A stretch of 64,000 bases of DNA from Phyllosticta citribraziliensis (GCF_038025025.1 NW_027117351.1:744001-808000); one strand, 5' to 3'; shown: positions 5,367 to 27,828, counted from the stretch's first letter. Notes: generated by a model from the sequence alone, not told the origin. A program made the numbers and translations.

Positions 5367-6101
5367 GATTAAGGGGCCCGTCCACCGTCCGAGTGTCACG
5401 GCCGAGGTCGGGCGGTGGGTGGTTGAGGCGTGGCTTTTGGTCGTGGTGACCAGCCAAGGGCGTCGGTGGCGGCCATGACGAGCATTGTGCCATGTCAGGT
5501 GAAAAGCAAGGTGCTGACGGGCGCGGCGCTGATGAGGATCCTGGGGAATCATGTATGCGTAGGTACCGTCGTGGTGGATGAGGGCGGCGGGAGAGGGTTG
5601 CAACGGGGACGGGCATTGTCGAGATTTCTCCTTCGGGGGGGACAAGGAGGGTGAAGGGCGGACGTGGCTTGGAGGTGGTGGAGTCGAGGTGTTGGAAGGT
5701 CGGCGAAATGACACATGGGGCCCTGGCCACCTCACCTCAGAGCGAGGGTGCACGGACACATCGGTGGGTGGTCGTGTCGCGTCATCGTCCACGGCACCTC
5801 CCCTCATCCACCCACTGCCCTGGCCACCACCACCACCACATGCACTGCAGACCAGACCACACTGCACCTCATCCAAACTCCAAGACAGCAGATGCGCTGA
5901 ACTCTTCTTTTTCCCACCGTCGTCCTCAGCTCGTCTGACTCCTGCCGCTGTGCTGAAATATCGCCGGCTGCCCTGTTTGTTGCCTGTCTTGTCTGCTTGC
6001 TGTGCGCTTCCATACATCTTCCATTTCCCCCATGCCGTGTGATCAATTTCGTCGAAATCCTCGACTCTTTCGTCACCGGCCCAGTGAGCCAGTCTTTCGC
6101 A

Positions 6102-9100
6102 ATGCAACTCACAAGCTTTCCAAATCTCCATTCATCAGACCCCCCGTGCGACCCACCGCATGCTGCCGGCGAAATCGTCCTCCACGGCCTCGCGCAGCTT
6201 CCGGATGAAGCCATTATTGCCGCTTGGGGACTGCTGCTGGGCGCCTATGCAGGCGTTGATGATGTGAGCTTTCTAGTGGACGACAGCCTTGTTCAGGTTA
6301 GCGCCACGGGCTGCATCTCGACGACGTCCGGACGACCACCATCAGCATTCTCGGATCACATTTCCGGACTCTTCTTCAAAGCGGCATGCTGCGCAACATC
6401 TTGCTCCGTGTCACCTCGACTGACGTGCATCCAGGAACCTCCTCCGCTACATGTCTCTTTGGCCCTGAGCCTCCATTGCGACCGCTCGCTTGGCCGCGTG
6501 CGGCTTGCTCACTCTTCTCGCATTCCTGCCCGTCACGCTCAGCAAATGGCCGCCCAGCTGACACGCTGCATTCTCGCGGCCTCTGGCTCTGACCAGACTT
6601 CTCAGCCGCCAGTCTCCCTCTCGGTAGTCAACCCCGATCCCAAGTTGCTGGACGGACCACGAATGCTCCAAGATCTGATCCGCTGGAATCGCTATCCCGA
6701 TCGTCTCGCAATCGACTTTCTGGGCCAACATGGCAGCCATCAAAAGCTCTCCTACTCCGCCTTGGATCGCCTCACCACCATCCTGGCCAGGGAAATACTT
6801 CCCAAATTGACGCCAACGAAGCAGCAGCACGTGGTACCGCTCTTGCTACCCCAGTCACCAGAGCTCTACGTTGCTCAGATTGCCATTCTCAAGGCTGGAG
6901 CCGCCTTCTGTCCCTTGAACCTGGACGCGCCTCCCGAGCGCGTCAAGTTCATCATCAACGATGTTTCCGCCCATTTGGTCATTACTACCTCTTCATTGCG
7001 AGACAAGATACCCCAAGATTTGCCCGTTTGTGTTTTGTCCTTAGACCATGAGAGCCTGGATTTAGCATTAGACGAGGCGCCTAAGGAGCATTCATTCACC
7101 ACCACAGCCGCGCTCAGGGAGGAGTCGTCCACTGCAACAGCACTGCCGATTCCGCTGCCGGAACAGCTCGCATATGTCATGTACACGTCCGGCTCCACGG
7201 GCACGCCAAAAGGCGTCGGTGTCTCCCACCTGGCGGCTACGCAGAGTCTTCTGGCTCATGACTTGCATATACCAGAGTTTTCGCGTTTTCTCCAATTTGC
7301 TTCTCCAACTTTCGATGTGTCTGTGTTTGAGATCTTCTTTCCTTTGTTCAAAGGTCGGACTGTTTGCACGTGTGAGCGCACCGACTTGTTGAACGACCTT
7401 CCGCTCATGATGAACAAACTGGAAGTTGATGCGGCGGAGCTCACGCCTACTGTGGCTGGCACCCTGCTTCAAACACGGCACGCTGTTCCACGATTAAAGC
7501 TGCTCCTGACAATTGGCGAAATGCTGAGCTCTCAAGTTGTCCAAGAATTTGGTGGTTGCGACAATAAGACAAGCATTCTGTGGGGCATGTACGGTCCAAC
7601 AGAAGCCGCCATCCATTGCACGCTTCAACCAAGCTTCCCCGCAAACTCCAAGGTCGGTAATATCGGAAGACCCCTGGATACCGTATCCGCATTCGTATTG
7701 GCACCCTCCGCAGATCCTTCTGCCAACTCTTCATTGGAAATTGTCCCTCTTGGTCAAATCGGCGAACTTGCTGTTGGTGGTCACCAGCTCGCGAATGGCT
7801 ACCTCAATCGGCCCGAACAGACCGCTGTTGCGTTTGTTCAACACCCAAGATACGGTCGGCTGTATCGAACCGGCGACAAGGCTCGGCTGCTCCCAGATGG
7901 CACTCTTGAGTGTCTAGGGCGTATGTCCTCGGGCCAAGTGAAGCTCCGGGGACAACGCGTTGAGCTCGGAGAGGTTGAGCAAGCCATATCGAATGTACCC
8001 GGATGCCGCAGTGCGACCGCGAGCGTAGTTGCTGGCGTCCTCGTCGTCTTCATCCTCGTTTCCGACAAGGATTTGACTCCAGAGGTCGTCTTTTCCGAAT
8101 GTAAACGCTGGTTGCCAGCTTTTATGATTCCTGGGGATGTCATCCTTTTGGGCGAGCTACCTCGCCTTCCTTCCGGTAAGGTGGACCGCCAAAAGTTGGA
8201 GACCAATTACCAGGAAAAGCAGAAACAGCCTGATGACCGACACACTCACGTCGATGAGACTGAGCGCAAAATCTGTCAACTGATTTCGAGAGTCCTCGCA
8301 CAGCCTGTTCTCCCCACAAGCAACCTTGCGAGTTTGGGTCTTGATTCTCTCAAGGCCATTAGAGTCGCATCTCTCCTCAGATCATCCGGCTTCAAGGTTG
8401 GGGCCGTCGATGTTCTTGCGGCTAACGATGCTGCTTCTCTAAGATCGATGATCCAGCACTCAAATGCTTCCACACCGCCTGCTGTACATAAAAGTTTGTT
8501 TGCTCAGGTCAAGCAGGCCACCCTGGAACTTCCTGAAATAATACCACACCTGCCCCAGATTCACGACGTACTTCCGTGTACACCTGTACAGGCTGCCATG
8601 CTAGCTGAAGCTGCCAACAATCCAGAAGCCTACTGTAACTGGATAGAGATCGAGGTTCGACAGTCACATAATGTCGCCGATATCCGAAAGTGGTTGCATC
8701 TGCTTGCTCAAAAGAACGAAATCTTGCGCACTGGCTTTGTCAGCTTAAGCAAATTGTCAATCTCGCACTCCCAAATTGTCTGGACTGGACTATCTGAGGA
8801 CCAAATCATGGAAGTGAGCGAATTCGAGCGGAGCTTCAGGCTTAGCTCTCCGTCCTCAGCACTTCGGCCCTTGCGTTTCCAGGTCAAAGTTTCCGACTCC
8901 GCTGTCAATATTGTCTGTCAAGTATTCCACGGTCTGTACGATGGATGGTCAATCGACCTGATGTTAAATGATTTGAACGACCTAGCCGCTGGTCGCTCAC
9001 CAAAGGATAGGCCGCAGTTCCGCGATGTTGTCGTACATCACTCAAGTCTGGCCGCGGCTGATATTGAACGCTCATTGGACTACTGGCGGGAACAACTCGA

Positions 9101-12100
9101 CCGCTACACTTATTCCGCGCTTCCAAATTTCAACGGCAAAGTCGTTCCTACCAGCGGCCTCCAAGTCAAGTCTCGCGAGCTCACCACCCCTCTCGATGGC
9201 TTGAGAAGATGTTCCGCAGCGCTCAATGTCAATCCGCAGGTCATATTCCAGGCTGCTCTTTCCTACCTGTTGAGTTTCTACTTGAACAACACGGATGTCA
9301 CCTTCGGCACAGTTACTTCAGGCCGAACTATTCCAATTTCTGGAATTGAGGAGATCTTGGGTCCCTGCATTTCAACGCTCCCTCTGCGACTCGACGTCTC
9401 CCACGCGCACAGGGTCAAGGATCTTCTTTTACTAGTCCATGACCGAAATCGGGCAATGCTGAAACATTGCGAGATTCCGGCAAGGGATATCAAGAAAATT
9501 TGCGGCCTCGCCCCGGGTAGTCCTCTTTACGATGTTCTCTTTGTCTGGCAAGAGACGTTGCAGGACTATACTGCTCCGGATCGCGTTGTCAAACAGGTGG
9601 ACAGTGCGGATCAGCTCGAATTCAAGCTGACTCTTGAGCTCGAGCCCCGCGCTTCCTGCATATGCGTCAAAGCTACTTACGACGCTTCAATTTTGCCAAC
9701 TCCCCAGGTCGATATCATTATGGGTCAGCTTGAAGAAATCGCTAGCTTCTTCATTAACAATGTTGAAGGCGAGCTGACAGAGTCTTCCGAGCACTTGAAT
9801 GACTCGTTGCTTTCGATGGCCAACGTCAACTTCGAGCACTTCGAATTCGGTCTCGGACCTTCTCACTGTGTCGAGACTCGAGCCGAAAAGACTCCACATG
9901 CTCCAGCTGTTGAATTTAGCCGGGTGATCTCTGAGTCGGGGATGAGGACTGACCGAATCACTTACCGAGAACTCAACATGCGGGCCAACCAATTGGCCCA
10001 TCTGTTTCTGTCCCTCGGCACAACTCCCGAAGACCTGGTGTGCATCAACATGGAGAAGTCGATCGATCTGTACGTCTCAATGCTGGCAACTCTCAAAGTC
10101 GGCGCAGGCTACGTCCCAATCTTGCCAGAAACCCCCCTCGAACGCGTGCGCTTCATCATAACCGAGGCCAAGGTGAAGACGATTGTGGCACACAGCAGTA
10201 ACTCTGCTCCCCTCGTATCTCTCGAGCGCAACTTGATCAATGTTGATCAGGTACAATTTGAGGAATTCAGCTCAAGCAATCTAAATGTGCCCTATGATGG
10301 ATCACGCGTTGGCTACGCCGTATTTACCTCTGGTAGCACTGGTGCCCCGAAGGGGGTTCTCGTCACGCAAGACAATTTGATGAGCAACCTGGAGGTGCTC
10401 GCCAGAATGTATCCGGTCGGCAAAGGATCTCGCCTTTTGCAGCAGTGCTCACAGGCCTTTGATGTCTCGGTGTTTGAGATCTTCTTTTCCTGGTACACGG
10501 GCATGTGTCTTTGCTCGGGGACGAAGGATGAACTATTTCAAGACCTGGAGCTTGCCATTCGCCAGATGCGAGTCACTCATTTGAGCATGACGCCAACTGT
10601 CGCTGCTCTTGTCAGACCGGAGAAGGTGCCAGAGGTCAAGTTCCTCGTCACCTCTGGCGAAGCCGTCACCGAGCACGTCCGACGTTTCTGGGCCGGCAGA
10701 GGCCTTTGGCAAGGCTATGGACCATCCGAGACAACAAACATATGCACGATCAATCCGAGAGTCACCGAAAATGACCTCATCAACAACATCGGATCCGCAT
10801 TTGCCAACACCTCTGCTTTCGTGATGGATAAATCCAAGGATGTTTTCGTTCCTAAAGGAGGAGTTGGAGAGCTCTGCTTCGGAGGTGACCAGGTTTTTCG
10901 CGGCTACCTGAACCAACCTGAGCTCACTGCGAGGAAACTAATTCACCACCCGAAGTTTGGACGCATCTACCGTAGTGGTGATCTTGGCCGACTCTGTCCC
11001 GACGGCTCAATCCTTTTTACTGGACGATCAGATGATCAGGTCAAATTGCGCGGTCAACGCATCGAGCTCGGCGAGATTAACAGCTGCATCCTCGACTCTC
11101 CTGGGGTCAAGGACTGTGTGACACTGCTGTTAGGAAATCATGGCAAGACCGCCCAACAGCTTGCTTCTTTCTGGGTACCATCCTACGTCAATTCCAAGGA
11201 ATTTGATTCTCTGCCGATCGACGAATCAATATCCAAGACTGTCGACGCAGTATTCGGATCCCTTGAGGGCACTCTACCCGCGTACATGCTGCCTAATGCT
11301 CTAATTCCAGTTTCGGCAATCCCAAGGACGACTCAAGGCAAGACTGACCGGCGCAAGCTCACGTCTTTGCATGAGAAATTGACTTCCGAACATCTTGACG
11401 CCGTATCACAACACAAAGCGGGACAAATGAATGCTTCTAGCGACTGGTCAGAACTTGAGCGTAAAGTCGCGGCGGTCTTGGCTGAGGTGGTCAAAATATC
11501 CGAACAAGAGATTGGTCGCCAGGTCTCGTTCTTCGCATACGGCGTGGACTCAATTTCTGCGATTTCGTTTTCCACGGGTCTCAAGGCCCGCGGCTTGCCC
11601 CGGGTTCCAGTTTCCACCATTCTCAAGAATCCTACCGTTGCGAGACTATCAAAGGTCATTGACGCAACAGCCGGATCAGTCAAGACCGAAGCTAAATCCG
11701 TCGATCTGGATCAGGTCTTCAGCAGCGAGACACGCGAGCAGATTCTGGCCAGCTTTGACCAAAGAGGCATTGCCGTTGAGAAATTACTTCCCTGTAGTCC
11801 TCTTCAGGAAGCCATGTTGTCCTCTGGGGGTCCAACTGAGACTGCAACTTACCTTAACAAGATGCTGTTCAAGATCACTGGAGATGCCGAACTGATGCGG
11901 CAGTGCTGGTTCGACGTTATCAGACGACAAGAAATTTTGCGCACTTGCTTCGTCCCTACCGAAGACTCCCAGTACGCCTTTGCTCAAGTCGTTCTCCAGC
12001 ACTATGAGGCACCCTGGGATACCTTTGAAGTTGAAGAGAGAGCGATCAGCATGGAAGTCAAGCAGTATGTCGAAAAGGTCCTGCCATTGATGGCCCCTTC

Positions 12101-15100
12101 TGGCAGTCCCCCTCTTCGCTTTGCCACCTTCATCACTGGCGAATCTGTTTACCTGCTCTTCTGCTGCCATCACGCCATGTACGACGGCTTTGCCATGGAG
12201 CGACTGGTGATGGAAATCGAGCAAATTTATTACCGTGGAGAAATTCTTCCTCCCGCACCACCATATGAGCCGTATCTGGAGCAAATGATCCTTGCCTGCT
12301 CCGGTGAGGCGGATGCATTTTGGGATGACCATCTCCAAGATCTGGAACCAACTTCCTTCCCAGATCTTACCGGGCTCTCTGCTTCTGTCCGCAAAGATAT
12401 CATGAGCCACGGGATCTTAACTTGGGATCTGCCCTTCTCTCTCAGCGCTTTGGACGCAGACTGCCGTCGCCTTTCCTCCTCTTTGCTCGCACTTGGCCAA
12501 GCCGCGTTTGCAAAAATTATCTGCTCTTACACAGGCGAAAATGACGTTTGTTTTGGCAACGTTGTCAGTGGGCGCACCCTGCCAATTGATGGGCTTGAGC
12601 GGCTGATCGCTCCTTGTTTCAACACGCTCCCGATCAGAGTTAACCTTGATATGTTCAAGACGAACAACGCCCTTGTCACATTTCTTCAGTCCTTCAATGC
12701 TGATATGCTTCCCTACCAACTGACACCACTCCGCAAAACTCAAGCGAACAATACTCAGGATGGCTCGCGTCTGTTTGACACGCTGTTTATCCTCCAGCAA
12801 TCGGCGTACTACTTGAACGGCGATATTTGGGAGCTCCAGGAGGATATTGGAGAGATGGATTTCTCTCTCGTCTGTGAGCTCGTTCCAAACCGGAAAAAGG
12901 ATAAACTCGCCTTGATCCTTCACTACCACGAGGCCTTCATTTCCAAGTCTGACATTTCCTGTGTGGCCGAAACTTTTGCATCTGCACTCAAATCATGCTT
13001 ACAGTACCCATCGGCACAATCCAGAGATATTGGTGTTCCCAGTCGTCTTCTGTCCTTGAGAAACCTCGATTTTGAGATTTTGGAGCCTCCCGCTGGACTT
13101 TATCTGCATTCTGGCTTCGAGAGAAATGCAGTCGTCCGTCCCAATGCTGTAGCGTTGGAGTTCCAGCATTCTGACGGCAACCACGGCATGTGGACTTTCA
13201 ACGAGCTGAACCAAATCTCCAATCAGATTGCCCACGCGCTGCTGATGCATGGAGTTTCCCTTGAGGACTCCGTCCCGATCTGCATCACAAAGTCTCCTTT
13301 ATACTACGCCAGTATGTTGGGAGTACTCAAGGCTGGCGCGGCCTTTACTCCGATCGATGACAGTCTTCCCACGTCTCGTAAAGAGTTCATGCTGAAAGAA
13401 CTCGGGGCGAAGATCTTGATTGCTAGCAATGTTGTCGATACCTCGTGGGTTACCGAGGCAAGAATCATTTTCTTCGAGACCTTGAAAGACCTTCCCACGG
13501 ACAACCCATCGGTTTCTGGGCTCAAACCTACCCACCTGGCCTACCGGCTCTACACATCAGGCTCTACCGGGACGCCAAAAGCCGTCAGCGTGGAGCACCG
13601 CAACCCTGTGCAAACCGTTGAGGCATCTCGTTCAATCATCCCTTGGAGTGAAAAGTCTCGGCTTCTGCAATTTGCGGCCATTACTTTTGACATGTGCTAC
13701 TATGATTGCTTCCTGGCCTGGACCTTTGGATTTGCTCTTTGCGCTGCTGAGCAGCCTGCAATGCTTAACAACATTGTCGATATTATTTCATCATTGGAAG
13801 TCTCCCTGGTCGATTTGACACCGAGTGTCGCAATGAGTATTTCCCCGGAATTTGTGCCCAGCCTCCAGTACATGTACTGCATTGGAGAAGCAATGCCGCA
13901 AGAGCTCGTTGATCGCTGGGAAGGCAAGCTCGTCAACTCTTACGGTCCCACTGAAGCCGCGTTTTGCGTGTCCATTTTCAGAGTCTCGAAAGAAGTCAAG
14001 TCGGCGGTGATCGGCACACCCTTCCCAACAACGAGCTTCCTTGTTCGATCCAGAGACGGCTCGTTCACAGTGCCTTTGTTAGGCGTCGGTGAGCTGTACC
14101 TTGGTGGTTCTCAAGTGGCACGCGAATACCATGCCAATTTGGAAAAGACAAGGGCCAGCTTCGTTGTTTACAATGGGCGGCGTCTTTATAAGACTGGTGA
14201 CCTCGTCCGCATTCTCGGCAACGGCACCTTCGAGTTTATTGGTCGTGTGGATGATCAAGTCAAGATCCGTGGTCTCCGCGTCGAACTCGGAGAGATCAGT
14301 CACGTAGTCAGGCAAGCTCATCCTTCCTTGAGGGCTGTCCACACGCAGGTCCTCCGCGCCTCAGAACAGTCCAAGGAGCAAATCATGGCATTTTTGGCTG
14401 TCGGCAGAGAGCTTGGGGACCTAGATGCGCATGAGCTTGTTGCAAAGGCGAAGGAGGTGGCCAAGATCAAACTCCCTGCGTACATGGTGCCAAACTTCTT
14501 TATCCCGGCGGAAAAGATCCCTCTCTCTGCGGCCGGAAAAGTTGACAAGAGGGCTCTTCAGGGTTTGTTCCAGAAGTGGGAAAGCACCAACCAAAACTCG
14601 GCCCAGGAAGACGACCGCGAATGGACGGCTGATGAACTCGAAGTCCGGGCTGCGTTTTCCAAGCTGTCAAATGCTCCCGTCACAAATATCAGCCTGCACA
14701 CTACAATCTACCAACTCGGACTTGACAGCATTAGCGCTGTGCAGATCGCTGCGGTCCTGAGAAAGAAGGGCTTCAAGGTCACGGCTGCCGATGTCCTGGA
14801 GCGTCCTACTTGTGAGGACCTTGCAAGCCTCCTTCGGCTCGTGCAAACGAACGGCGACATTTCCGAGCCAAGTTTCGACTTCAAGGCCTTTGACGAGACG
14901 CATCGCAGCTCCATCTGTCAAGAGCTTGGTATTCCCAGCGACCAGGTTGTCTCTGTCAAGCCCTGCACTCCCCTTCAAAGCGGCATGGTCTCAAAATTCT
15001 TGCAGTCCAAGGGCAAGATGTACTTCAATTACATGGAGTATCAGTTCCCAAACATGGACGCTGTCACTCTAGAGCAGGCCTGGCAAAAGCTCTTGAAGAA

Positions 15101-18100
15101 GCACGAAATTTTGAGATCTGGTTTCGTACACATCAACGACTCTCAGCACCCGTTCGCGATGCTCACTTGGGAATGTGCTGCTGCTGGAGTGCCAGTTTCC
15201 AAGACTGAAATCAATGAGAGCTCTTCTCAGAGAGTCGCGGAATGGCGCAAGCAATCTCGGCGCCAGGTCCTGAGTATTTTGCACCAGGGAGCATTCCGTG
15301 TGCTGCTGGTCAACCTTCCGGATGGAGTCTCGATGCATCTTGCTATGCTACACTCCCTCTACGACGCTCAGAGCCTCCGCATTCTCTTGGACGATCTCGA
15401 AAAAATCGCTGCCGGCACTGATCCAACCGCGTCTCCAGTAGAGCCGATTCTGAGCACAATGCTCAGATCCAGCGCTGATGACTCGGCTGAGCGCAAAGAA
15501 TTTTGGGAAGAGAAGTCCAAGGACATTTTCGTGAACCCTTTCCCTATCATGACCCCCTTGAGGGTTAGGGAGGGTGAAACAAAAGTACTCTCCAAGATTT
15601 CAGCGCGAAGACTGGGCCAATTGGAAGCCGGTTGCCGAGAAGCCGGTATTTCAATGCAAGCTGCTGGCCAGGGCGCTTGGGCCCGACTTCTTTGCGCATA
15701 CACTGGTGAAGAAGCAGCAACTTTCGGTGTCGTGTTTTCCGGACGCACACAAGACGACGCGGAAGCAGCTGCCTTTCCATGTATTACCACCGTCCCGCTC
15801 CCTGCGAGAAATCATGCGACCAATCGCGTCCTGCTCACCGACATGATGGAATTTAACTCCGCTGTCCGCAAATACCAATTTACTCCTTTGACAAAGATTC
15901 AGCGCTGGACCGGCCATCCGGACGAAGCCCTATTCGACACCATTTTTGCGTACCAGAAGCTCAGTGATGAAAATACTACCTCGAGGAAGTGGAAGACGGT
16001 TGACGAAGAGGCGACTGTCGATGTCGCAATCTCCATTGAGCTCGAACCGAACAGTTTGGACCAGCTCGAGCTCAGAATCAGCTTCGACACAGATCGATTA
16101 CCGCTCGAACAGGCAAAGACGCTCTTGGAGCAACTCGATAGAATTCTCATTTATATCATCCTACGACCTGATGCTGATATGGACGCGGCCTTTGAGGAAA
16201 CCCCACATCTCTTGTCTATCACTCCGCCAAAAGAACGCGAGATCCACACCGATGTCAAGCTTCTACACGAGTTTGTCGAGAGAAGCGCGCGCCAGATTCC
16301 CGACAAGATCGCCTTTGAGTTTGCCACCAACATTGAAAACGGAAAGGTCACTAGCAATTGTTGGACATACAGCGAGCTCGACGCTGAGGGCAACAAGATT
16401 GCCAATCTCCTCAAGAGCCGAGGAGCCCAGCCCGGTGGTCTCATCGGTGTCTGTTTTGACAAATGCCCTGAGGCATCGATTGGTATCCTCGGAGTCCTCA
16501 AGGCTGGATGTGCTTTCGTTGCTCTTGATCCCGGTGCCCCTGTTGCGCGAAAGACTTTCATCACCGAGGACTCAAACGCCCAAATGGTTGTCTCGATGAG
16601 CTACCAGTCAAAGGACTTCGAGGACCAGCTCAAGGTGCCCCTGATCAATTTGGACGAGGTGGATGTTTCTGAGTACTCTGCCGAGAAACCGCAACTCTCC
16701 AGAAACGTTACTCCTCAAGACCTCAGCTACTGCCTATATACCTCTGGCACCACTGGCACGCCCAAGGGTTGCGAGTTGACGCATGAGAACGCCGTGCAAG
16801 CAATGATGGCCTTTTCTCGCCTTTTTTATCCCCGCTGGGATGAGCAATCAAGGTGGCTTCAGTTCGCTTCCTTCCATTTCGACGTCTCAGTTCTCGAGCA
16901 GTACTGGTCTTGGGCCGAGGGAATCCGCCTGGTTTCTGCGCCAAGAGACTTGATCTTTGAAGACCTTGCTGGTGCTATCAACGCTTTGGAAATCACTCAC
17001 ATCGACTTGACGCCGAGTCTAGCCAGGATTCTTTCGCCAGAAGATGTGCCCTCTCTGACAAGAGGCGTATTTATCACCGGTGGCGAGGCTTTGAAGCAAG
17101 AAATTCTCGACGCATGGGGCAAGCACGAAGTCATCCACAATGGGTATGGCCCCACTGAAGCTACAATTGGCGTTACCATGTTCCCAAGGGTCCCCGAAAA
17201 TGGCAAGCCGTCCAACATCGGCCCTCAATTTGATAACGTCGGGTCCTTCGTGTTCAAGCCCAAGACCAACATCCCTGTGGTCCGTGGTGGTGTGGGTGAG
17301 CTTTGCGTCTCCGGAAAACTAGTGGGCAAGGGTTATCTCAACCGCCCTGAGCTCACGGACGAACGCTTCCCGAACTTACCAGAGTTCAACGAGCGCGTCT
17401 ACCGCACCGGTGACTTGGTCCGCATCCTCCACGACGGGACGTTTGATTTCCTGGGTCGTGCCGACGATCAAGTCAAGCTCCGTGGTCAGCGCCTGGAAAT
17501 TGGCGAAATCAACAGCGTCATCAACCAAAGCGAATCTCAAGTGCTGGATTCGGCCACGCTGGTTCTCAAGCACCCGAAGCAGCAGAAAGACCAGCTGATC
17601 AGCTTTGTCGTCACCAAATCAACATATCAGAAAAGACAGAAGCCGACGGTCGTCTTCAGTGCGAGAGAGGAAATGCAATGTGTGCAGGATGCTTGTCGTT
17701 CCAAGCTGCCGACTTACATGGTACCAACATACTTTATTCCACTCACGTCCATGCCACTTTCGCCCAACAACAAGGCCGATGGCAAGCAGCTCAAGGAGAT
17801 TTACTCGAGCCTCAGTGCGGAGCAACTCCAGAACATTTCAATCTCCGCAGAAGATGGCGGTGCTGCATCTTCTGCTGAGGAGAAGAAAATTGCTGAAGTG
17901 CTTTCTTCCATGGCATCCGTCGCCAGCGATAACATTTCGCGCAGCTCCAGTATTTTCGAGCTTGGCCTTGATTCTATTTCCGTCATTGGCTTCGCCAATG
18001 CACTGCGCAAAGCTGGTTTCAGGAACGCGCAAGCTTCAATCATCATGAAGAATTCTGTCATTAGCCGGCTGGCCAAAGTGTTGTCTTCAACTTCCGTCAA

Positions 18101-21100
18101 CACTTCTGAGCAGAGCTCGATTCTTGCCGCAAAGCAAACCATCTCCGCGTGCCAACATCAGTATAAGTCCTTCGCTGCAAAAGCTCTGGAAGTTGACCAG
18201 CCCGACATCGAAAGCATCGCTCCTTGCTCACCGCTCCAACAAGGCATCATCTCGCGAGTCTTGGAGAGCGAAAAGCCAGTCTACTTTGCCACTTTCAGAT
18301 TCGAACTGGCCGACAATACAGATTTGGCCAGGCTGAAGGCTGCGTGGCAAACGATTTTCGAGGCAGTCCAGATTCTTCGAGCGCGCTTCATCCCGACGGA
18401 TGATGGATACATTCAGGTCGTGCTTTGTGACACACGTCTGCCTTGGGTCCAGTCCGAGTTGCCCAGCCAGGAGCAGTTGGTGTCTTTCCTGGACCATAAT
18501 AAACTCAAGTGGTGGAGTCAGAATCGCGAAACAATGGGCAGGCCGTTCGAATTGGTCGCTGCCGTCGCCCCAGGGAAGACGGTGCTTTCGATCAACATCA
18601 TGCACACTTTGTACGACGGCATCAGTTTGCAACTGCTGCTCCAAAAAGTCCAAGCCGTGTATAATCAAGGAAATTCGGTCGAGGTTGGGCCACGATTTTT
18701 GGATGTGCTGCCCTATGGACCGCTGAGAAGTAACTCTGAGTCCCAAGACTTCTGGAAAGGTCATCTTCAAGGAGCTCAGAGTTCCTTGATGCCTAGCCTC
18801 ATTTCAAAGCCGCAAAACGAAGATGTCAGTGTCAAGCTGAACCTCCGGAGCCTCGATGCCTTCGAAACTGTAAGGCGCAGGCTGGGCGTGACCCATCAGG
18901 CACTCGCACAAGCATCATGGGCCGCCGTTCTCCAGAAATACTTCGCCGGCTCTGTGACCTTTGGCATGCTTGTTTCTGGCCGCTCGATCGATTTTGAAGG
19001 CGCGGAGCTCACGATTGGGCCTTTGTTCAACACTATTCCTTTCCATCTGCGCTTCGATCCGGCCGACAAGTGGGTCAAAATCGTTCGCAAGTGCCACGAT
19101 TTCAACGCATCCTGCCTGCCTTACCAGCATACTCCGCTCAGAGACATCATGAAGTGGACAAAGAGGACTGCAAACCAGCCCCTTTTCGACCCTTTATTCT
19201 CGTTCCAACGCGAAATAGAAGGCGGAGATCCGGATGATAAGTTATGGAAGCTGTTAGAGGATCAGCCAGAGGCAGACTATCCTTTGGCTTTGGAGGTGGA
19301 GCACAAGATCGACGGAGGCTTGGGCCTTACTATCGTGGCTCAGGGCCATTTGATGGATGAAGAAAACGCGAGGGGTCTCCTCAATGAATTCGAAAATTCA
19401 CTACGCGATCTTCTAGCGAACGAGGAGGCTCCCGTGTCGGCGACTGTTGGCGAGATCAAATCCACTGGGTCTCAGAATGGTAACACTGCCAGGGAAAACG
19501 GTCTCAATGGCTTTGCAAATGGCGTGGATGGGTTTGAGTGGACAACAGTGGCGCGCAAAATTCAAGAGCAAATCGCAACGCTTGCCGGCTTGGACGTCCA
19601 GGAGGTTGACGAGCATTCGACAATTTTCGAGCTTGGACTCGACAGCATTGACGCCATCAAGCTGTCTTCTAGGCTAAAGAAGATTGGTGTCAATCTTCCG
19701 GTCAGCCACATTATGCGCAGCCTAACGATCCCCAAGATGGCGCGCGAGGTCCCTGATGTGGCAACAGACAGTACCGATGTGACACCTGGAGTCATCTTGG
19801 TGACAGAAGAAGAGAAGTTACGCGACTACCTCCGTTCGTCTGGCCTTTTGGATCTCGAAAAGGTTGAGCGCATCCTGCCTGTCACTCCGCTGCAAGAAGC
19901 CATGGTCACTGAGATGGTCTCTTCGGACTTCCGCAACTACTTCAATCACGACATCTTGAAAGTCGCGCCTGGATTAGACCTTGAAAAGATGAAGCAGGCT
20001 TGGAATGCCGTATACTGCGATTCTGCAATTTTGCGCACGGTATTCGAGGAGATTGAAGATCCAGACTTCGATATCTCCTTTGCTCAAATTGTCTACAAGC
20101 CACAAAATTTGGCTTTCGAAGAGGTCAGCGTCGCTACCGAGGAGGAAGTCCATCAGTTCCTGGAGCGCATCAGGGAACGTACTGCAAAAAGCAACGGTAG
20201 GGAGGGTCTATTCCACCTGACACTCGTCAGCTCGCCATTAGCGAAGTACCTAGTCCTGTCTCTTGGCCATGCCCTGTACGACGGGTGGTCACTCGGCCTT
20301 CTACATCACGACGTGAAGAGCGCATATGGAGGGAAGCCCGTGGCTCGCCCATCCTACGACAAGATTCTGGAAGACGTTCTCGATGCGTCCGGGGAAAGAG
20401 CAGCTAACTTTTGGAAGGACTTTCTCGATGGCGCTCCAAGCAGCACCATCCTCGGGGACGAGCGTCTCCGAAAGCAGAATTCCGACTCGGAAGTTCATCG
20501 ACTGGAGCGCGGGTGCACAGTGTCTGTCGAAAAGCTCCGTGTTTTCTGCAAGAAGACCGGCATTACTTTGCAGGGTCTTGGTCAGACTGCATGGTCTCTT
20601 GTGCTTGCCGCTTACCTGGGCAGACTGGACCTCGTCTTTGGTGTCGTGCTGTCTGGCCGCGACAGTGAAGAATCTGAAGATGTCATGTTCCCGACTATGA
20701 ACACTGTCGCTGTTCGTTCGATCATCCACGGCACGAGGAGAGAAATGCTGCGGTACATGCAAGAAAACATTGGCAACATGAGACAGTTCCAGCATTTCCC
20801 TCTGCGAAAGGCGAAGGCCATGACCAACACGCATGACAAAAGCCTGTTCGACACGCTCTTCATGTTCCAGACTCGTCGAGACGAAGGCGGTGCCAGTGGC
20901 TCTGAAGCTTTGTACGAGTCTATCGGTGGTGCTTCAAATGTCGAATATCCAGTGGCTATCGAAGTGGAAGCGATCGGTGACACCTTGCTATGGCGCACCG
21001 CTTGCAAGTCGGACGTTTTCGATTTGGCCGGGACTGAAGAGCTGCTCAAGAGGGTTGATGCTGTCATTCGGAGCATCTTGAACGCCCCCGACGAGGCCGC

Positions 21101-22927
21101 GGTCGAATTCGGGGAAGAAGGAGCTTCCGTGTGTGGTCTGCCTCCTTTCAAGCACGCTTCCATCGAGACCGAGCCTGAACAGGACGAGCCGCACGCCAAT
21201 GGGGTACATGATCCTGTTGAATGGTCAAGCCTGGAGCAGGCTGTCCGCGAAGTCCTCTCGCGGGTGTCGAAGATGCCTGAAAACGAAATAACAAGGGACG
21301 CAACGATTTTCCACCTGGGTCTCGACTCCATCAGCGCGATCAAGGTCTCTGCACTCTTGCGGAAGAAGTCGATCAAGCTCAGTGTCAGCGAGATGCTGCG
21401 CGCCGGGACTGTTGCAAAAATGGCCCAAACAATTGAAATTACCCGGTCAAGGGATCCCCTTCTGGCGGCTCCTGCGGCCGAGATCCTTACAAGAGCACTC
21501 AAGGGGATAGATGTGGAGAGGCTACTCACTGAGGCCTCCATTTCGTCTGGAGACGTCGAGCAGGTGTTGCCTACTAGCCCTGGCCAAGCATACATGTTGT
21601 CTGTGTGGCAACAGACTGAGGGGCAGACTCTCTACCCAGGCTTCAAGTACAGGGTCTCTGGGGATGTCCAAGAGGATGTCCTTCGCGATGCTTGGCTTGC
21701 TACGATCGCTGCGAACCCGATACTTCGCACGGCTCTCCTCACCACAGGCGATCAAGAACTCCCCTTCGTTCAAGCTGTGTTGAAGTCTCCTGGGGATTCT
21801 TTCCATCAGTTTGACGATTCTGCTTCTGTGGGAGCGCGCAACAAGCAACCCTTCGTCGACATTTTTGCTCAAAGACAAAACAGTTGCTGGCTTCTCACCC
21901 TCAAAATTCACCACGCTTTGTACGACGGAGTCAGTCTTCCCTTGGTCATGCACCAGTTCGAATCACACTGCAAGAACGCCACTCCCACACCAAAATCGCC
22001 GACAGTATTCCCTGCTTTCCTCGCTCTCGGCGTCGCTCAAGACACCATCGCCAAACGCAAGTCATTCTGGACCTCTTACCTCGCAAAGTCGACGTCGCAG
22101 CGCCTCCTGCAGCCGCAAGCAGCAAAATCGGGCCGCACCAGCGTCTTCAAAGCCAACATTGCGCCGTATCTGCCGACAATCGAGAAGGTCGCCCCCAAGC
22201 ACGGCCTCAACATCCAGACACTCTTCCTCGCTGCCTACGCCCGCATCTACGCACGTCTAGCCAACTCTGCCCCCGCCTCCGACGTCATCATCGGCATCTG
22301 GCTCGCCAGTCGCTCGCTCGCCATCGACGACTTGGCCGATGCAGCTGTCCCTACCGTCAACCTCGTACCTCTGCGCATCTTGGCACCTTTGGAAACATCT
22401 CTCTTCGACACTGCTAAGCGCATCCAAGCCGACCTGGCTGATATAGGGACAGCCGAAAACTCGAGCGTCGCGTTGAGCGAGATCCATCGCTGGACTGGAG
22501 TGCAGGTCGATACATTTGTGAACTTCTTGAAGCTGCCTGAGGGCGAGGAGGGCAGCGATGTTGCCGGCACGGCAGATGTCGGCGCCGGCGAAGACAACAG
22601 CATCAGGGTGCGCGAAGTTGAGTTTCCGGATCATCCAGCAAAGGGCTGGAGTCGTATCGAGAAGTATGAGGATTCCGAGTGGCACGATTTGCCCGAACTG
22701 GCAAACAGTGCTGTCAAAGATTCTTACCTGGTGAGCCTTTCCCCGGATTCCTGGCAAACGATCGCGATGAGCTAATGGTCTTTTGTCAGCATTCAATCGA
22801 CGTGGAAGCTGTAGTCCGTGGGGGCAACCTGCACATGGGCGTCTACTGCGACGCGGGTATGCTCGATGTCGCGGCCGCTGAGCGCATTATTGACGAGATA
22901 GCGGAGGAGCTGAGGCAGGTTTCCTAG
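6102..22927 (+). CDS. NPS2: Ferrichrome/ferricrocin-type intracellular siderophore NRPS, (A-T-C)x4-T-C-T-C
   Basis: 5592-aa ORF with first ATG at 6102. Four A-domain P-loops: YTSGSTGTPKG ~7180, FTSGSTGAPKG ~10320, YTSGSTGTPKA ~13550, YTSGTTGTPKG ~16740. Six T domains (G[LV]DS[LI]) and six C domains (xHxxYD[GA]). Terminal intron 22731-22789 (GTGAGC...GCTAAT...CAG) leads to last exon HSIDVEAVVRGG...RQVS*. A probable in-frame intron lies at 6384-6434. Confidence 0.92.
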
Positions 22928-23169
22928 TTGTTGGGTTTTGTCTTCTTTCTTTTCGGATTTCGACCGTGACGCCGTTACGATTTCGCTTCTTGTATCTTTC
23001 TTACTGCTGCCTGTGTTTTGCTTGCTGCGCGTTTGGCATCTGTCTGGCTTTTGGTATTGACGAATCTCCCTCGGCATTGTTTTTGCGTTATCAGTTGCTC
23101 GCCTCGCTTTTGCGTTTCGGTCTGACTTCAATATAGACACGATGTGTGTCATCTCTGCTCTGGGGTCTT

Positions 23170-23485
23170 GGATTCTGCGTGTACGCCGCTTGTGTGCTAC
23201 CGGCCTTGAATGCTCCTCATGTGTGGTTTGTCGCGTGGACTCGTGAATGCTTCACGTATGCCATCATTGGACCGCTTCAACGCTCCTCATGTGCCTTGTT
23301 GTCCCTTGAACGCTTGAAGGCTCCACTCCACGTGCGCCATCGTTGAAGTTCTTCCAAGGACGTGGAATGCTCCTTGTATGTCTTGTTGTCGCTTGGAGGC
23401 TTGAATGCTCCACGTGCTCCGTCGTTGAAGCTTTTCAAAGCCCAATGGCAGCACAACCTGCTACGTTTGAATGCTTCTCATGGGC
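23170..23485 (-). repeat. Degenerate periodic array of GAATGCTCC cores (AGGAGCATTC on minus), ~33-38 bp spacing
   Basis: Cores at 23208, 23245, 23278, 23316, 23365, 23403 and 23469, e.g. gaatgctcctcatgtg, gaatgcttcacgtatg, caacgctcctcatgtg, gaatgctccttgtatg, gaatgctccacgtg, gaatgcttctcatgg. Confidence 0.75.
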
Positions 23486-23838
23486 CTTCTGCAAAACACA
23501 CGATTACTTCTGTGGCGAGTCACATCGTCAATGGAGATAGGCTGTATGGGTATGATCAAGCATTCAGCTGCTTGAGATATCTCTCCACCCTTGTGGAGGC
23601 AGTTCACGTGCTAATTTAAGTCCCTCCCCAGCATTCGTAAAGTGAAGTCCCCCTCCAAACTCAGTATGTCGCCGATGTGGGCGTTGGCTCGTAGCCCCAT
23701 AGAAGCAAATGAAGGAAAAAAGGAAAAAAGGAAAGAGGAAAAACCGAAAACCCATAGTCCCGCCACCATGCAATGTATGACCACAAGGAGGCTCCGTCCG
23801 CTCACGTGGTCAGTCGTGTTGTTGATGCTGTCTGCATC

Positions 23839-24632
23839 CTACTCGTCGCCATCGGCCTTGACCTTCCTCCTGGATCGATTGACCCTCTTGCCGAGAAAGA
23901 GATTGTCGATGTAAGTCTCTCCGGCCATGACATTGTTGAGCTGCTCCTCGCACTGCCTGGCCCACTTGGCCGAAAGGCCCTGGATTCGGTCCTTGATGCG
24001 GCGCTGGGGGTCGTCATCATCGTCGGGGTGAGGGTCGGCGCGGCCGTCCAAGAGCTCCTTCAGGCGCTTCTCGCAAGCCTTGGCCGAGTGGAACGTGTCG
24101 TTGGAGATGTCGTTGAGCGTGAAGGCCGTGTCCTCGAAGAGGCGGGCGTGGACCTTGGCGAGCTCGCGCTCGTGGCGCAGCTTGTTGATGTTGTGGGCCT
24201 TGATGAGGGCAGCGTCCTGGATGTGTCAGTATTGGAAGCACTCGCATCGTTGAGCTGGAGCTCACTTCATTCATCGTCCAATGCTTCATTTTGAAGTCAA
24301 GGGCGTCGTCATTAGCAGCCATTTTGGCGAGTCGGATGCGTCTGTAACGCGTGCCGATCGTTTTGGCACTGTAGCCGCTGCCTTCCTCTTCCTCCAGGAT
24401 CTTGGCGATCTGGGTGTCGCCGAAGTCGAGACCCTTGTATCTGACAATCTTCTCGTCGAGGCTGTCAAGCTCGCCCGTGATAGGGCGCCTGCTCATCATG
24501 AAGACATCTGGCTTGGGCACCGGCGGAGCGCGGTTGGCAGGTCCCTTGGGCAAGTTAGCTGACAGCTTGGGAGGCTCGGTGTGCGAGTGAGGGTACCTCA
24601 TGAGGCTCAGTTGAGTTGTTGTTCCTGTCCAT
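23839..24632 (-). CDS. Small uncharacterised protein (~230 aa) with HTH-like and Myb/SANT-like segments; 3 exons
   Basis: ATG 24632 (MDRNNNSTEPHE). Intron 24596-24545 (GTACCC...GCTAAC...AAG) and intron 24265-24217 (GTGAGC...CTGAC...CAG) join ORFs 24017..24601 and 23839..24051 in frame. Motifs: DEKIVRYKGLDFGDTQIAKIL...YSAKTIGTRYRRI, HWTMNEDAALIKA, and SAKACEKRLKEL. Confidence 0.75.
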
Positions 24633-24799
24633 GTTTGTCGATGCCAGTCCGATGAGCCCGTGCGTGTGGAGTCCGTGCGTTGTTGGGTTGAGGTCCGTGC
24701 GTTGGAGGTTGATGGAGGAGGGGGGTGGGGGGCGGTTTTGTGCTTGTGGGTGACTCATCCACTCTGGAGGGAAGGTGCCCCTCGCCCACATGTGAACAG

Positions 24800-24876
24800 G
24801 AAAGCGCCGAAAGGGGTACGGGGGAAACGCCGGGAGGGGTCACAGGAAGGCGCCGAAAGGGGTAACGGGGAAGGCC
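24800..24876 (+). repeat. Three ~23-bp imperfect direct repeats (GAARGCGCCGAAAGGGGTAMCGGG)
   Basis: gaaagcgccgaaaggggtacgggg / gaaacgccgggaggggtcacag / gaaggcgccgaaaggggtaacggg / gaaggcc, ~170-240 bp upstream of the 24632 ATG. Confidence 0.7.
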
Positions 24877-24998
24877 TACAGACTGTCAACCTCCTGCCAC
24901 CTCAGTACGGTACTTAGCAGCTCTGGGAGTCCTCCTACAGTCAGTCTCTGCCGAATCAACTTGGGTGTTATCGTTGCCTACGACTTTATTTAGAGACC

Positions 24999-25625
24999 CA
25001 AGGAGCATCCGTTAACTCACAGCTAGACGTGTCGTCCTAGGAGGCTCCATCGCCTGCTACTCTTCTCAATGGCTCAAGGAGCATTCGTCAGCGCACTACT
25101 GGATGTGTAGTCCTGGGAGGCTCCATCATCTACTATTTTACTCAGTAGCCCAGGAAGCATTCGTCAACTCACTACTAGGTGTAGTCCTGGGAGGCTCCAT
25201 CACCTGCTACTCTTTTCAGCGGCACAAGGAGCATTCGTCAACTCACTTCTGGATGTGTAGTCCTGGGAGGCTCCGTTACCTAGTGCTCTACTGAGACGCT
25301 CAAGGAGCATTCATGCTCTGATTTGAGTAGCGAAGCTCAAGGAGCAGCCGTACTCCGTTGCTGAGGGATAGCTTGAGGAGGATTCCGATTAGACTGCGCC
25401 GCGGCTTAAGGAGCGTTCGAACATCTACATCTAATCAGCTCAGGGAGCATCCTGACGACGTTACTACTGAGAAGCTCAGGGAGCATTCGGCCGTCAACGG
25501 CTGAGTTGCCGCCAAGGGAATTTCTACATGTCAGCAATGCAAGACACAGGAAGCGTTCATGTATTTGATGAGTGTACGACCGCAGAGCATCCAGCCGTCC
25601 GAGTAGGCACACAGGGAGGCTTCGA
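24999..25625 (+). repeat. Periodic array: four 74-76-bp units (each a dimer of ~38-bp monomers), then ~10 monomers of 31-37 bp with conserved CTCARGGAGCATTC core and variable spacers
   Basis: Cores start at 24999, 25075, 25151, 25225, 25301, 25338, 25374, 25407, 25441, 25477, 25513, 25547, 25581 and 25612. A mid-unit CTGGGAGGCTCC variant occurs in the 76-mers. Confidence 0.88.
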
Positions 25626-25726
25626 TGGCCTGCACAAGAGGCATAGAGGAATACTTCAAAACTTGGCCTGTTGCAGCATCTGCTCGAAGGTGGAGCCCGT
25701 AAAGTTTCATGACGGACTCTCCAGAC

Positions 25727-25865
25727 CTTTCGATGCTCGTTCGCTATCCTTTCGGTGCTCGTCCGCTGGCTGTCCGCTGGCTGTCCGCTGCTCTTTCGAT
25801 GCTCATTCGCTACTCCCATCCACTGCTCGTCCGCTGTTCGCTCGCTCGCTCCTCATCCGCTGTCC
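25727..25865 (+). repeat. Degenerate ~11-bp (GCTGTCCGCTG/GCTCGTTCGCT) low-complexity repeat
   Basis: Tandem ggctgtccgct units, plus two copies of ctttcgatgctc(g/a)ttcgcta at ~25727 and ~25793. Confidence 0.6.
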
Positions 25866-26371
25866 TTTCCATACGTGCACTTTGAGAATATTCACAAAAG
25901 GCTGACTGTTTCGCAGAGGATGTAAGGCATTCGTCAACCGGATCGCATAAGAAGCCTTCATCCCTGCAAGTGAACATGTGCGTGCGTTGAAAGTGTCCGG
26001 GATGCTTCTGTTCCGGATGATGGCAGAAGGAGGCTTGTCGTCTGGTCGCGAGAGTGCAGAAGGCCAAGGAGCGTTGGGAGCGGAGGCGATGACAGTGTGG
26101 CTGTGAGGGATGTGGTCGAAACAAAGTGGTCGTGGTACAGGCTAGCATGACGTCAGGTGCCTGCCGCCCAGTTCGATTGGCTGCACCACCCACGTCCCGG
26201 TCGTCTTTTGCCCGCACCTCCCCTCAGCCTTCTATAGGCGCTGACCTGTTGCTATACCTTGCGTCAACCTCGCTCGCCTCGCCCAAAAAACCTACTTATT
26301 TCACCAAATCCCACCGCTCCCCTTCTGCGCCCCGCTGCGCATCACCCACCTACCCGCTTCACATCGCCACC

Positions 26372-27828
26372 ATGCTCGAGTACTTTACCTACAAGAAGTT
26401 CAAAGAAAACCGCGACAAGAAGAAGGAAGCCGAATCGCCTGCGCACACGCCCAAGTCGCCCGGTCCTAGCGACCATGCGCACGACATTCCTGAGCCCCGA
26501 TCACCTATTCTCGATGACCGCGACGAGGCTTTCTTCGAGAGGGTAACGTCTGCTGGATACCAAGACCAAGAAGAGGAGACGCCACCTCCGCTGCCTGCAA
26601 GGCCTGGCACTGCCCAACATAGCTTGGAACATCCGAGAGCGAGATCCACAGAAGCAGAGAATGTTCCTCTCCCGCCGTCTCCTGCTGTCGATGACAGCAA
26701 GGCTTCCAAGGACAAAGCGCGCAGCTATTGGTCGTACGTCCAGGACTTGCCCAAGAGGGCCATGGTAAGTCTCATCCTACTCGGATTAATGCTTGCCTGG
26801 GTCTGACACCGTGCAGACAAAAAGACAGTCCAAGGCCGCAGGAGATACACTGGCGTCAGCCGCAGGCGCCGTCAAGAGAGGCGAAGGTGTTCCTCTCAAC
26901 CCAGACGGCACGCTCAACGAAACCGAGATCAACAAAGAGGAGCGCGATTTGACACAAGTCCTGGACCAGCTGAACCTTGCCGCCGTTAACAACCGCGTCT
27001 TCAGCTTCTCGGAAGAATCGCAGAACCTGCTCGAAAGATGGAAGCAGGTACTCCGCGACATCGTCTCTGGCGCTCCGCACGCGTACGAAGATCTCGAACA
27101 GTTCTTGACCGGCAGCGAGAAGCAGCTGGACAAGATGTACAACAGCCTGCCGCCGTTTGTGCAGAACTTGGTCAGGTCGTTGCCCGTCAAGATGGCCGCC
27201 ATGCTCGGACCCGAGGCTTTGGCTGCGGCCGAAGGCAAGCAGTTCGACTCGAAGAGGCTGGCTACTGAGGGCACCTCGAAAACGAAGCGACTTGGAAAGA
27301 AGGCGATGCGCATTCCTTCATTAAAAAGGCTCGTCACTGAGCAGGGTGCCATCGCCGCCATGCTCAAAAGCATTCTCAATTTCCTCAAGTTGAGGTTCCC
27401 GGCTGTCGTGTCCGGCACAAACGTCTTGATGAGCCTGGCAGTGTTCAGTGAGTTCGCCTCCTCGTTTTCCCAAGGGTTATCGCTGACATCGATCCACAGT
27501 CCTCCTCTTTGTGGTGTGGTACTGCCACAAGCGCGGCCGCGAAGTGCGTCTTGAGCAAGAGGCTGCCAGACAGGGGTCGCAGTCATCGCTCGAAAAGAGT
27601 GCCTCTGAATTCGAGGACGACGACATCATCTTGGAGCCCATCCGCCCCACCAGCATCGAAGAGCCAGATGGCCCTATCCGCCAGTCCACCGAGCCGCCAA
27701 TCCACATCCACACCGATCCCGCGGCGCCAGACAAGCCGAGTGCGGACGTGAGGGACTTGCCTTCGGTGCTCCATTTGCCTGAACCGGGCAGCAACCCCAA
27801 GGACGGCGGAAAGGAAAGAAGCTCTTGA
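26372..27828 (+). CDS. Conserved fungal hypothetical protein with one C-terminal TM helix; 3 exons
   Basis: ATG 26372 (MLEYFTYKKFKE). Introns 26765-26816 and 27448-27499 (GT..CTGAC..CAG) join the three ORF pieces in frame. Conserved-looking blocks DLTQVLDQLNLAAVNNRVFSFSEES and LAVFILLFVVWYCHKRGRE. Confidence 0.8.

Follow-up and report, generated by a model that had tools for sequence, protein, structure and literature searches.

Regular arrays of a short DNA motif are known from several systems. The human hypervariable minisatellites, which Jeffreys is said to have described in 1985, reportedly share a short core, and this core is said to have been proposed to promote slippage, unequal exchange or conversion. 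In fungi, tandem repeats act as enhancers in promoters, e.g., the 34- and 46-bp repeats of Aspergillus fumigatus cyp51A and the 126-bp repeats of Penicillium digitatum CYP51. Plasmids carry iterons and centromere-like sites such as parS and sopC, the latter with 43-bp units. Myb-like proteins bind polar terminator or barrier arrays, Reb1 and Nsi1 in yeast and TTF-I at the Sal boxes behind the mouse rRNA genes. The gypsy insulator has 12 Su(Hw) sites with variable spacers within about 350 bp. In PIF/Harbinger transposons the subterminal regions contain a 9-bp motif which is bound by a Myb-like protein, as stated in PMC9710019 with reference to Sinzelle et al. (2008). Here we analyse a locus of the fungus Phyllosticta citribraziliensis, contained in a stretch of 64,000 nucleotides (GCF_038025025.1 NW_027117351.1:744001-808000), in which two arrays of one short core motif, inverted with respect to each other, enclose a small gene of the DUF7626 family. 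The two arrays share this core and a period; one of them lies inside the 5' leader of the enclosed gene.

Organisation of the arrays

The window in this text is the entire 64-kb stretch. All positions are counted from its first letter, and the arrays are read as units anchored on the core. The array features are as follows.

23208..23485, plus strand: left array, seven units with the core GAATGCTCC and a higher-order repeat of about 76-87 bp
24999..25312, plus strand: young block of the right array, in which a 76-bp unit is present 4.2 times (Tandem Repeats Finder score 362, 78% matches)
25301..25650, plus strand: right array, degenerate block, about ten units of 31-37 bp
25924..25938, plus strand: outlier, a unit start (AAGG--CATTCGTCAAC) whose core lacks 2 bases
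23784..23796, plus strand: solo unit start CAAGGAGGCTCCG, a palindromic core variant in the 3' untranslated region (position weight matrix score 15.1; repeat family D3)

The exact 9-mer GAATGCTCC occurs 11 times in the 64 kb, both strands counted, at an expectation of 0.56, and none of 100 shuffles reached 11. Seven of the 11 are within the arrays, at 23208, 23365 and 23403 on the plus strand and at 25078, 25228, 25304 and 25480 on the minus strand. When one mismatch is allowed, all six matches in 23208-23477 are on the plus strand and all nine in 25002-25488 on the minus strand. Thus, in both arrays the cores point inward toward the enclosed gene. The unit positions were read by eye from lists of matches with up to two mismatches. 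At this threshold the left array has core starts at 23208, 23245, 23278, 23316, 23365, 23403 and 23469, spaced by 33-66 bp. The right array consists of 18 units spaced by 31-38 bp, with core starts at 25002, 25040, 25078, 25116, 25154, 25190, 25228, 25266 and 25304, followed by 25341, 25377, 25410, 25444, 25480, 25516, 25550, 25584 and 25615. An unbiased search for the most frequent 8-mer, run separately on the left array and on the young 76-bp and degenerate blocks of the right one, returned GGAGCATT or GAGCATTC in every case. With strand-pure cores, such an excess of 9-mers and the same top 8-mer, the two oppositely oriented periodic arrays reported by a first-pass annotation of the sequence are real, and so is the outlier which it placed at about 25926.

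Each 76-bp unit of the young block is composed of two 38-bp half-units, one with GGAGCATTC and the other with GGAGGCTCC, a perfect 9-bp palindrome. Perfect palindromes are common among the sites of dimeric binders. In the degenerate block only the stretch (A)GCT-CARGGAGCATTC is retained across the units. The higher-order repeat of the left array rests on the repeat families D4, D6 and D8, and family D5 is also located there; CACGTG or CATGTG follows many of the left-array cores. The core consensus can be written as about YRRGGAGCATTC, with GGAGGCTCC as the palindromic variant. Its conserved part is GGAG, and the base after CATTC varies. Of the known sites considered, i.e., TEA/AbaA (CATTCY), heat-shock elements, the calcineurin-dependent response element of Crz1, GATA/SreA, HapX and Reb1, none seems to fit GGAG combined with a variable base after CATTC.

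The arrays are non-coding because their units measure 31-38 and 76 bp, lengths which for the most part cannot be divided by 3. The region bears no mark of repeat-induced point mutation: the ratio (CpA+TpG)/(ApC+GpT) is 1.29 at the locus and 1.15 in the window. Both points agree with the first-pass annotation. A unit-like stretch at 23056-23071 was discarded as indistinguishable from chance (the 17-mer unit start with up to four errors has 13 matches, and 5-15 in shuffles).

Conservation of core and spacers

Left and right arrays share twelve 9-mers in inverted orientation and one in direct orientation. In 500 dinucleotide shuffles the mean number of inverted 9-mers was 0.89 and the maximum 10, i.e., the proposed left-right similarity exceeds that of shuffled DNA. 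The best local alignment between the arrays is the 13-mer ACAAGGAGCATTC. A blastn comparison yields left-right matches of only 13-19 nt around the cores, and no further copy of an array elsewhere in the window. With the cores masked, the left-right alignment score is 9.0 against 9.1 +/- 1.1 in shuffles, i.e., chance. Judged by these comparisons, the arrays share only a conserved core of 9-12 bases and a 37/76-bp period. A foldback-type element, in which the arms are alike along their length, was considered and rejected on the same masked scores.

The contrast between core and spacer is also seen within the right array. Per position, the cores of the degenerate block have 0.6-1.8 bits of information and its spacers about 0-0.4 bits, the figure for the core being inflated since these units were anchored on it, a bias which counts against the functional reading preferred below. 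The four young 76-bp copies, for which the anchoring bias does not arise, have 2 variable columns out of 18 in the core and 27 out of 58 in the spacer (Fisher p = 0.011). In a sliding-window control of the young block the variability minimum was located at the core offset, tied with one neighbouring offset. Apparently, the core is kept, either by selection for a recognition site or by a drive which favours units with intact cores.

Transcripts and position of the arrays

Two sequencing runs, X1 and X3, bear the same organism label and originate from two studies. Their contigs are taken to derive from RNA because they skip GT..AG introns, two in the DUF7626 gene and one in the neighbouring gene for a nonribosomal peptide synthetase (NRPS). 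The transcript features of the DUF7626 gene are the following.

23509..26095, minus strand: extent of the RNA contigs, exons at about 26095-24939, 24875-24597, 24544-24266 and 24216-23509
24876..24938, minus strand: 5'-leader intron, 63 nt, GT..AG, in spliced and retained forms
23839..24632, minus strand: coding sequence of the 230-aa DUF7626 protein, with an HTH-like (helix-turn-helix) part, a Myb-like part and a long C-terminal helix
24545..24596, minus strand: intron 1 of the coding sequence, 52 nt, GT..AG, position +/-1, joint in X1 and X3
24217..24265, minus strand: intron 2 of the coding sequence, 49 nt, GT..AG, position +/-1, joint in X1 and X3

Three contigs of X1, which span 24938-26095, 24846-24967 and 23509-24875, are identical to the window, and at the branch points they share overlaps of 30 bases. 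The joint of the leader intron, 24874->24938, is present in X1 with 29 letters on its shorter side, and the contig 24846-24967 represents the retained form. This is the pattern of one RNA which runs from about 26095 to 23509 and optionally retains the leader intron. X3 has the same mRNA contig from 23549 on, and in addition the array pieces 25038-25213 and 25184-25309. As the RNA contigs reach 26095, the right array is inside a 5' leader of about 1.4 kb, 370-1000 bp upstream of the ATG of the DUF7626 gene.

The left array sits between the ends of the mRNA contigs of two convergent genes. Those of the DUF7626 gene end at 23509 (X1) and 23549 (X3), adapter letters following in each case, and those of the NRPS gene at 23157 (X1) and 23101 (X3). 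Contigs cannot prove where an RNA ends, and the position of the left array beyond both mRNAs is a weak hint. From the missing contig cover of 23208-23461 in X1 and X3 we draw no conclusion.

Turnover and dispersal of units

Two further runs are informative about unit number: X2, a metagenome (DNA) run with 99+% identity, and X7, which bears another organism label and has 80-99% identity. The differences in unit number were taken from contigs only, each in a single run. A joint in X2 leads back from 23416 to 23355 with 13 letters in between, and the left array of this run thus seems to be longer by one unit of about 75 bp. X7 has at least two versions of the locus. In one X7 contig, 23042-23364 (323 bases) is skipped and a 38-bp unit, 23387-23424, is present twice. 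A contig skips 24861-25333 (473 bases), i.e., the young block is lost, and keeps 25334-25608; another one covers 25113-25568. The DUF7626 gene has the same neighbours in X7 as in the window, and the arrays are retained there with gains and losses of units. Head-to-tail units of 10-100 bp and a unit number which differs between runs characterise the arrays as minisatellites.

A third array of about 218 bp is present in an unrelated RNA contig of X1 (7374 nt) and was also seen in X3 and X2. It has 24 differences and 2 gaps over 147 bases, i.e., about 84% identity. It must be located elsewhere because a 30-letter flank of it has no match in the window.

The DUF7626 protein

The three-exon model of the first-pass annotation, 23839-24632 on the minus strand, is exact. 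Its translation is identical in 230 of 230 residues to a hypothetical protein of Phyllosticta citribraziliensis retrieved by a word-indexed search (230 aa, termed P0003 here). Diverged homologues are present in P. citriasiana (60% identity) and P. capitalensis (49%). The sole Pfam match of the exon translation is DUF7626 (PF24625) at residues 44-98, with 53.4 bits at a cut-off of 27. HMMER reported 109 proteins at E <= 0.001 among 1.84 billion representatives. From the top of this list 51 relatives were aligned, leaving out P0017 with its 2708 aa, several short rows and all rows below P0061. All 51 contain DUF7626, 23 a SAP domain, 5 Myb_DNA-bind_6 and 3 Myb_DNA-bind_4; P0003 itself has no Myb match among the Pfam profiles. 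Where family members are named, it is as hypothetical, SAP or DUF7626 proteins, and they come from Dothideomycetes and lichen fungi. A name search for DUF7626 and PF24625 found no literature which names the family.

The AlphaFold model of P0003 has a mean predicted local distance difference test score of 90.5 and comprises three helices in residues 40-95, two in 103-162 and a long one in 175-229. Foldseek with this model gave no match at E <= 0.001. VIA-align superimposed residues 35-98 on HTH domains of the LuxR type and of sigma region 4, with root-mean-square deviations of 1.1-2.3 A over 50-58 residues and Z scores of 6-7.9, which are middling; the SANT/SLIDE module of ISWI aligned at Z 6.3 amid many such HTH rows. 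A sequence-profile search of the PDB returned only low-complexity-like or SAP-domain rows, on C-terminal parts of longer relatives. Querying metagenome contigs with the single protein matched 176 pattern stretches, none of them a relative. The DUF7626 match, the SAP and Myb_DNA-bind_6 domains of relatives and the HTH likeness are in keeping with the earlier designation as HTH/Myb-like protein. Considering the family and the model, P0003 is likely a nuclear nucleic-acid-binding protein, and it may pair through its long C-terminal helix.

Some side observations concern this gene family. An 89-base stretch of the DUF7626 domain, 24294-24382, matches a second RNA contig in X1 and X3 of which the sequence is unlike on both sides; the genome therefore contains, at another place, an expressed paralogue of the gene. 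In X7, only a right-hand loose end was seen at this stretch. The closest relative outside the genus, a 415-aa protein of Diplodia corticola (P0007), is named 'exodeoxyribonuclease VII large subunit' and looks mis-annotated. The 2708-aa P0017, an ant 'mucin-12-like' protein, has 13 stretches that match residues 111-157, probably via a repetitive helical segment.

Neighbouring genes and further repeats

Beyond the arrays and the DUF7626 transcript the following features were recorded.

24671..24870, no strand: leader, two other short tandem repeats (22 bp x2, 23 bp x3)
25726..25835, no strand: leader, tandem repeat of 22 bp x4.9 that contains 11-bp sub-repeats
26096..26284, no strand: gap between the leader contig (26095) and the contig of the next gene, holding a GATTGGCTG (CCAAT) box
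5901..22927, plus strand: siderophore-type NRPS (NPS2 of the first-pass annotation), convergent on the DUF7626 gene, with Condensation and PP-binding domains

From 24671 to 25835 the leader consists almost wholly of tandem repeats of five kinds (22, 23, 76/38, 22 and 11 bp). Outside the leader the window has tandem repeats only at 57472-58056, which are AT-rich with units of 23 and 30 bp. The mRNA contig of the next gene runs rightward and starts at 26285 in X1 and at 26338 in X3; presumably, 26096-26284 is a bidirectional promoter.

The long open reading frame of the NRPS encodes 5624 aa and ends at 22775. A 59-nt 3' intron at 22731-22789 (GT..AG, joint 22729->22789 in X1 and X3) shifts the end of the protein; therefore the stop is at 22925-22927, and the product has 5655 aa if there are no other introns. 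An ABC transporter gene at 1730-4741 is divergent from the NRPS gene, which makes for a siderophore-cluster-like neighbourhood, and no core-like sites stand out in the promoter shared by the two.

Four exact cores lie outside the arrays in the window, the expectation for the entire window being 0.56. The NRPS coding region holds three exact cores at 6661, 7085 and 15288, and a near-exact one at 11428; the two that were checked, at 7085 and 15288, have differing codon phases. A single GGAATGCTCCACGTGCG at 43757-43775 is positioned about 90 bp upstream of an open reading frame with ferric-reductase domains (43855-45879). A 15-mer of it, GAATGCTCCACGTGC, equals the left-array unit 23403-23417 including the CACGTG after the core, which at a blastn E of 0.14 may be chance.

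A motif pattern, which proved too loose, was used to scan metagenome contigs. It hit at least 117 loci, with nothing related among the matches listed. The loci richest in core, again among the matches listed, are exact tandem repeats, and in most of them the period is divisible by 3 (one has a period of 41 bases). Four metagenome loci were read unit by unit, and their flanks are unlike those of the Phyllosticta arrays. A literature search on Phyllosticta repeats returned nothing on these arrays.

Possible function and origin of the arrays

Tentatively, and with somewhat less than even confidence, we favour the view that the arrays are homotypic, tandemly grown clusters of one short protein-recognition site which act on transcription. 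Such clusters would have grown, and would still gain and lose length, through tandem duplication of units of 37-38 bp and double units of 76 bp; the spacers would drift freely and the core would be kept. A sequence-specific DNA-binding protein would load many times on each cluster and modulate transcription, at the leader cluster as activator, repressor or roadblock, and in the convergent gap by acting on termination or insulation. The arrays, the conservation of nothing but the core, the position relative to the RNA contigs and the turnover of units are observations; the core as a binding site, action at the level of DNA and every effect on transcription are what we infer, and the enclosed HTH/Myb-like protein is a candidate only for the binder. 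The idea of iteron-like or autoregulatory binding-site arrays put forward in the first-pass annotation is consistent with the conservation of the core alone. A bolder combination, which we consider quite improbable, is that the small HTH and Myb-like protein recognises GGAGCATTC/GGAGGCTCC and loads on the inward-facing arrays around its own gene, as a eukaryotic chromosomal counterpart of iterons and transposon ends. As a roadblock in the 1.4-kb leader the protein would then set its own expression, the convergent siderophore NRPS would be shielded from read-through, and the DUF7626 family may stem from the DNA-binding open reading frame of a Harbinger-like transposon of which the subterminal sites were kept.

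Several points weigh against clusters of a recognition site. A spacing of about 37 bp does not correspond to an integral number of turns of the helix. Six between-run differences are seen in 25113-25568, two of them in cores (25158 and 25236), which is too few to judge and gives no sign of constraint. Among the matches listed, the motif strings occurred in the literature only within primers or unrelated sequences. A core that promotes duplication or conversion could maintain itself without use to the cell. The third array, which is part of another transcript, has the spacers copied as well (they are included in the 84% identity), and this resembles the dispersal of a repeat more than an evolution of binding sites; moreover, unit number varies between the runs X2 and X7, as it does in neutral minisatellites. 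These last observations equally speak for a dispersed, self-propagating minisatellite family of no use to the cell, in which the core promotes slippage, unequal exchange or conversion. This we regard as possible, on balance rather unlikely. The inverted orientation around the gene would then be chance, 1 in 2. X7 contributes a further one-unit piece with unlike flanks (loose ends 25253 and 25313), and the leader holds four other, unrelated tandem repeats; nearly all tandem repeats of the window are located in it, so on this view the region is simply prone to tandem duplication. The first-pass annotation named a genome-wide minisatellite unrelated to the gene as a finding that would refute its view, and this applies in part, as the third array in another transcript demonstrates that the repeat is not exclusive to the DUF7626 gene. 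Against a dispersed minisatellite, there is no further array in the remaining 61 kb of the window. Further, the cores are the least variable columns even among young copies, and everything except core and period is randomised between the arrays, which needs selection or a strong drive on 9-12 bases only; we know of no mechanism for such a core drive in fungi. The layout alone, whichever of the other readings applies, might go back to an ancestral array split by an inversion with breakpoints inside the array and beyond the gene, which we think improbable. The two arrays agree in core, in unit length (37-38 bp) and in being organised as double units of about 76 bp, and exactly such a geometry would result from an inversion. 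X7 contigs, however, have the same arrangement, and since the spacers of the two arrays lack similarity any such split must be old.

Two other explanations we consider very doubtful. The locus might be a relic of a DNA transposon or a domesticated one, with the arrays as subterminal binding-site regions and the Myb-like gene as the DNA-binding open reading frame. This would fit the inverted geometry with cores inward on both sides, the 9-bp core, the enclosed protein with an HTH-like and a Myb-like part, and at least one copy of the repeat elsewhere; neighbours in the ESM-Atlas at 0.76-0.78 include Myb_DNA-bind_3, _5 and _6 clusters, scores below 0.9 being leads only. However, 23040-23230 and 25600-26150 contain no terminal inverted repeat above chance (scores of 8-9; in shuffles the means were 7.4-8.1 and the maxima 10-13). 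The spliced DUF7626 gene, in which Pfam finds DUF7626 and no transposase, fills the 1.5 kb from one array to the other. DUF7626, with its 109 representatives, SAP domains in 23 of 51 relatives and named members that are single hypothetical proteins, has the look of an ordinary family of fungal nuclear proteins. An empty site was not seen, as the X7 contigs carry the gene between the same neighbours. With arms that are unrelated outside the core, the proposal of subterminal arrays of a mobile element has lost ground. To the same low degree we credit an action at the level of RNA, in which the right array makes the leader a control element of translation or stability, via upstream AUGs or repeated sites for an RNA-binding protein, and in which read-through past the poly(A) site adds the left array and allows 5'-3' pairing or double-stranded RNA. 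The right array is indeed transcribed in two studies, in an RNA contig graph which continues into the mRNA. Upstream ATGs number 30 in the leader (18.8 +/- 4.0 in shuffles), and 8 of the 30 are part of a core because GAATGCTCC contains ATG. A left-right duplex is predicted at -200.4 kcal/mol against -172.9 +/- 8.2 in shuffles, of which at least 1 in 100 was better, and the gain on cofolding is -29.1 against -16.4 +/- 5.2, with none of 30 shuffles as good. Shared inverted cores must produce such pairing modestly above shuffles, and it would consist of 9-13-bp helices split by unmatched spacers of about 25 nt. Moreover, the arrays fold no better than shuffles (z-scores -0.67, 0.05, -1.40 and -0.61), Rfam has no match at E <= 1 in 22700-26400, no tRNA was found at the locus, and the mRNA contigs end to the right of the left array, a weak hint as said. 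Therefore an explanation by RNA structure is not needed, and the first-pass suggestion of structured or small RNAs with pairing 5' and 3' parts is weakened.

Provided that the core is a binding site, its binder could be sought with a natural array of 25 sites in two orientations, including a palindromic variant. The locus would also allow a test of how a strain-variable number of sites tunes a gene beside a siderophore synthetase, and it would open a first way to the function of the DUF7626 family, which comprises likely nuclear proteins of fungi. If it is a dispersed neutral minisatellite, it would be a polymorphic marker in a genus which includes citrus pathogens, and it would call for caution, as a gene could then come to be enclosed by inverted arrays that have no function.

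Comparison with known systems

With the human minisatellites the locus shares arrays at several loci, units that differ around a common core of about 10 bases, and a unit number that varies between individuals. It differs in that it is fungal, that two arrays are inverted around one small gene and that one of them is inside a 5' leader. The fungal promoter repeats resemble it in that tandem duplication multiplies a transcription-factor site, putative in our case, upstream of a gene. Those repeats, however, are 2-5 young, near-identical copies with known binders, whereas here 18 + 7 units are mostly old, have randomised spacers and include a second array behind the gene.

The iterons, parS and sopC, the analogy drawn in the first-pass annotation, likewise are regular arrays of a short site beside a gene for a small HTH protein. 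They serve prokaryotic replicon functions, and nothing in the present locus suggests a replicon or partition. The arrays bound by Reb1, Nsi1 and TTF-I resemble it in having repeated, oriented sites behind a transcription unit and one upstream, the left array being between convergent 3' ends; they differ in the motif, and the genes here are transcribed by Pol II. Like the gypsy insulator, the locus has dense homotypic clusters with a conserved core and free spacers; unlike this insect, retrotransposon-borne element, it involves a host gene in a fungus and two inverted clusters.

Compared with PIF/Harbinger (PMC9710019), a parallel that retains its value as an analogy, the locus is alike in that a gene for a Myb-like protein is between two regions with a repeated 9-bp motif, inverted overall. 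It is distinguished from these elements by the lack of a transposase, of terminal inverted repeats and of any sign of an empty site, and by a gene that belongs to the fungal SAP/DUF7626 family and contains introns.

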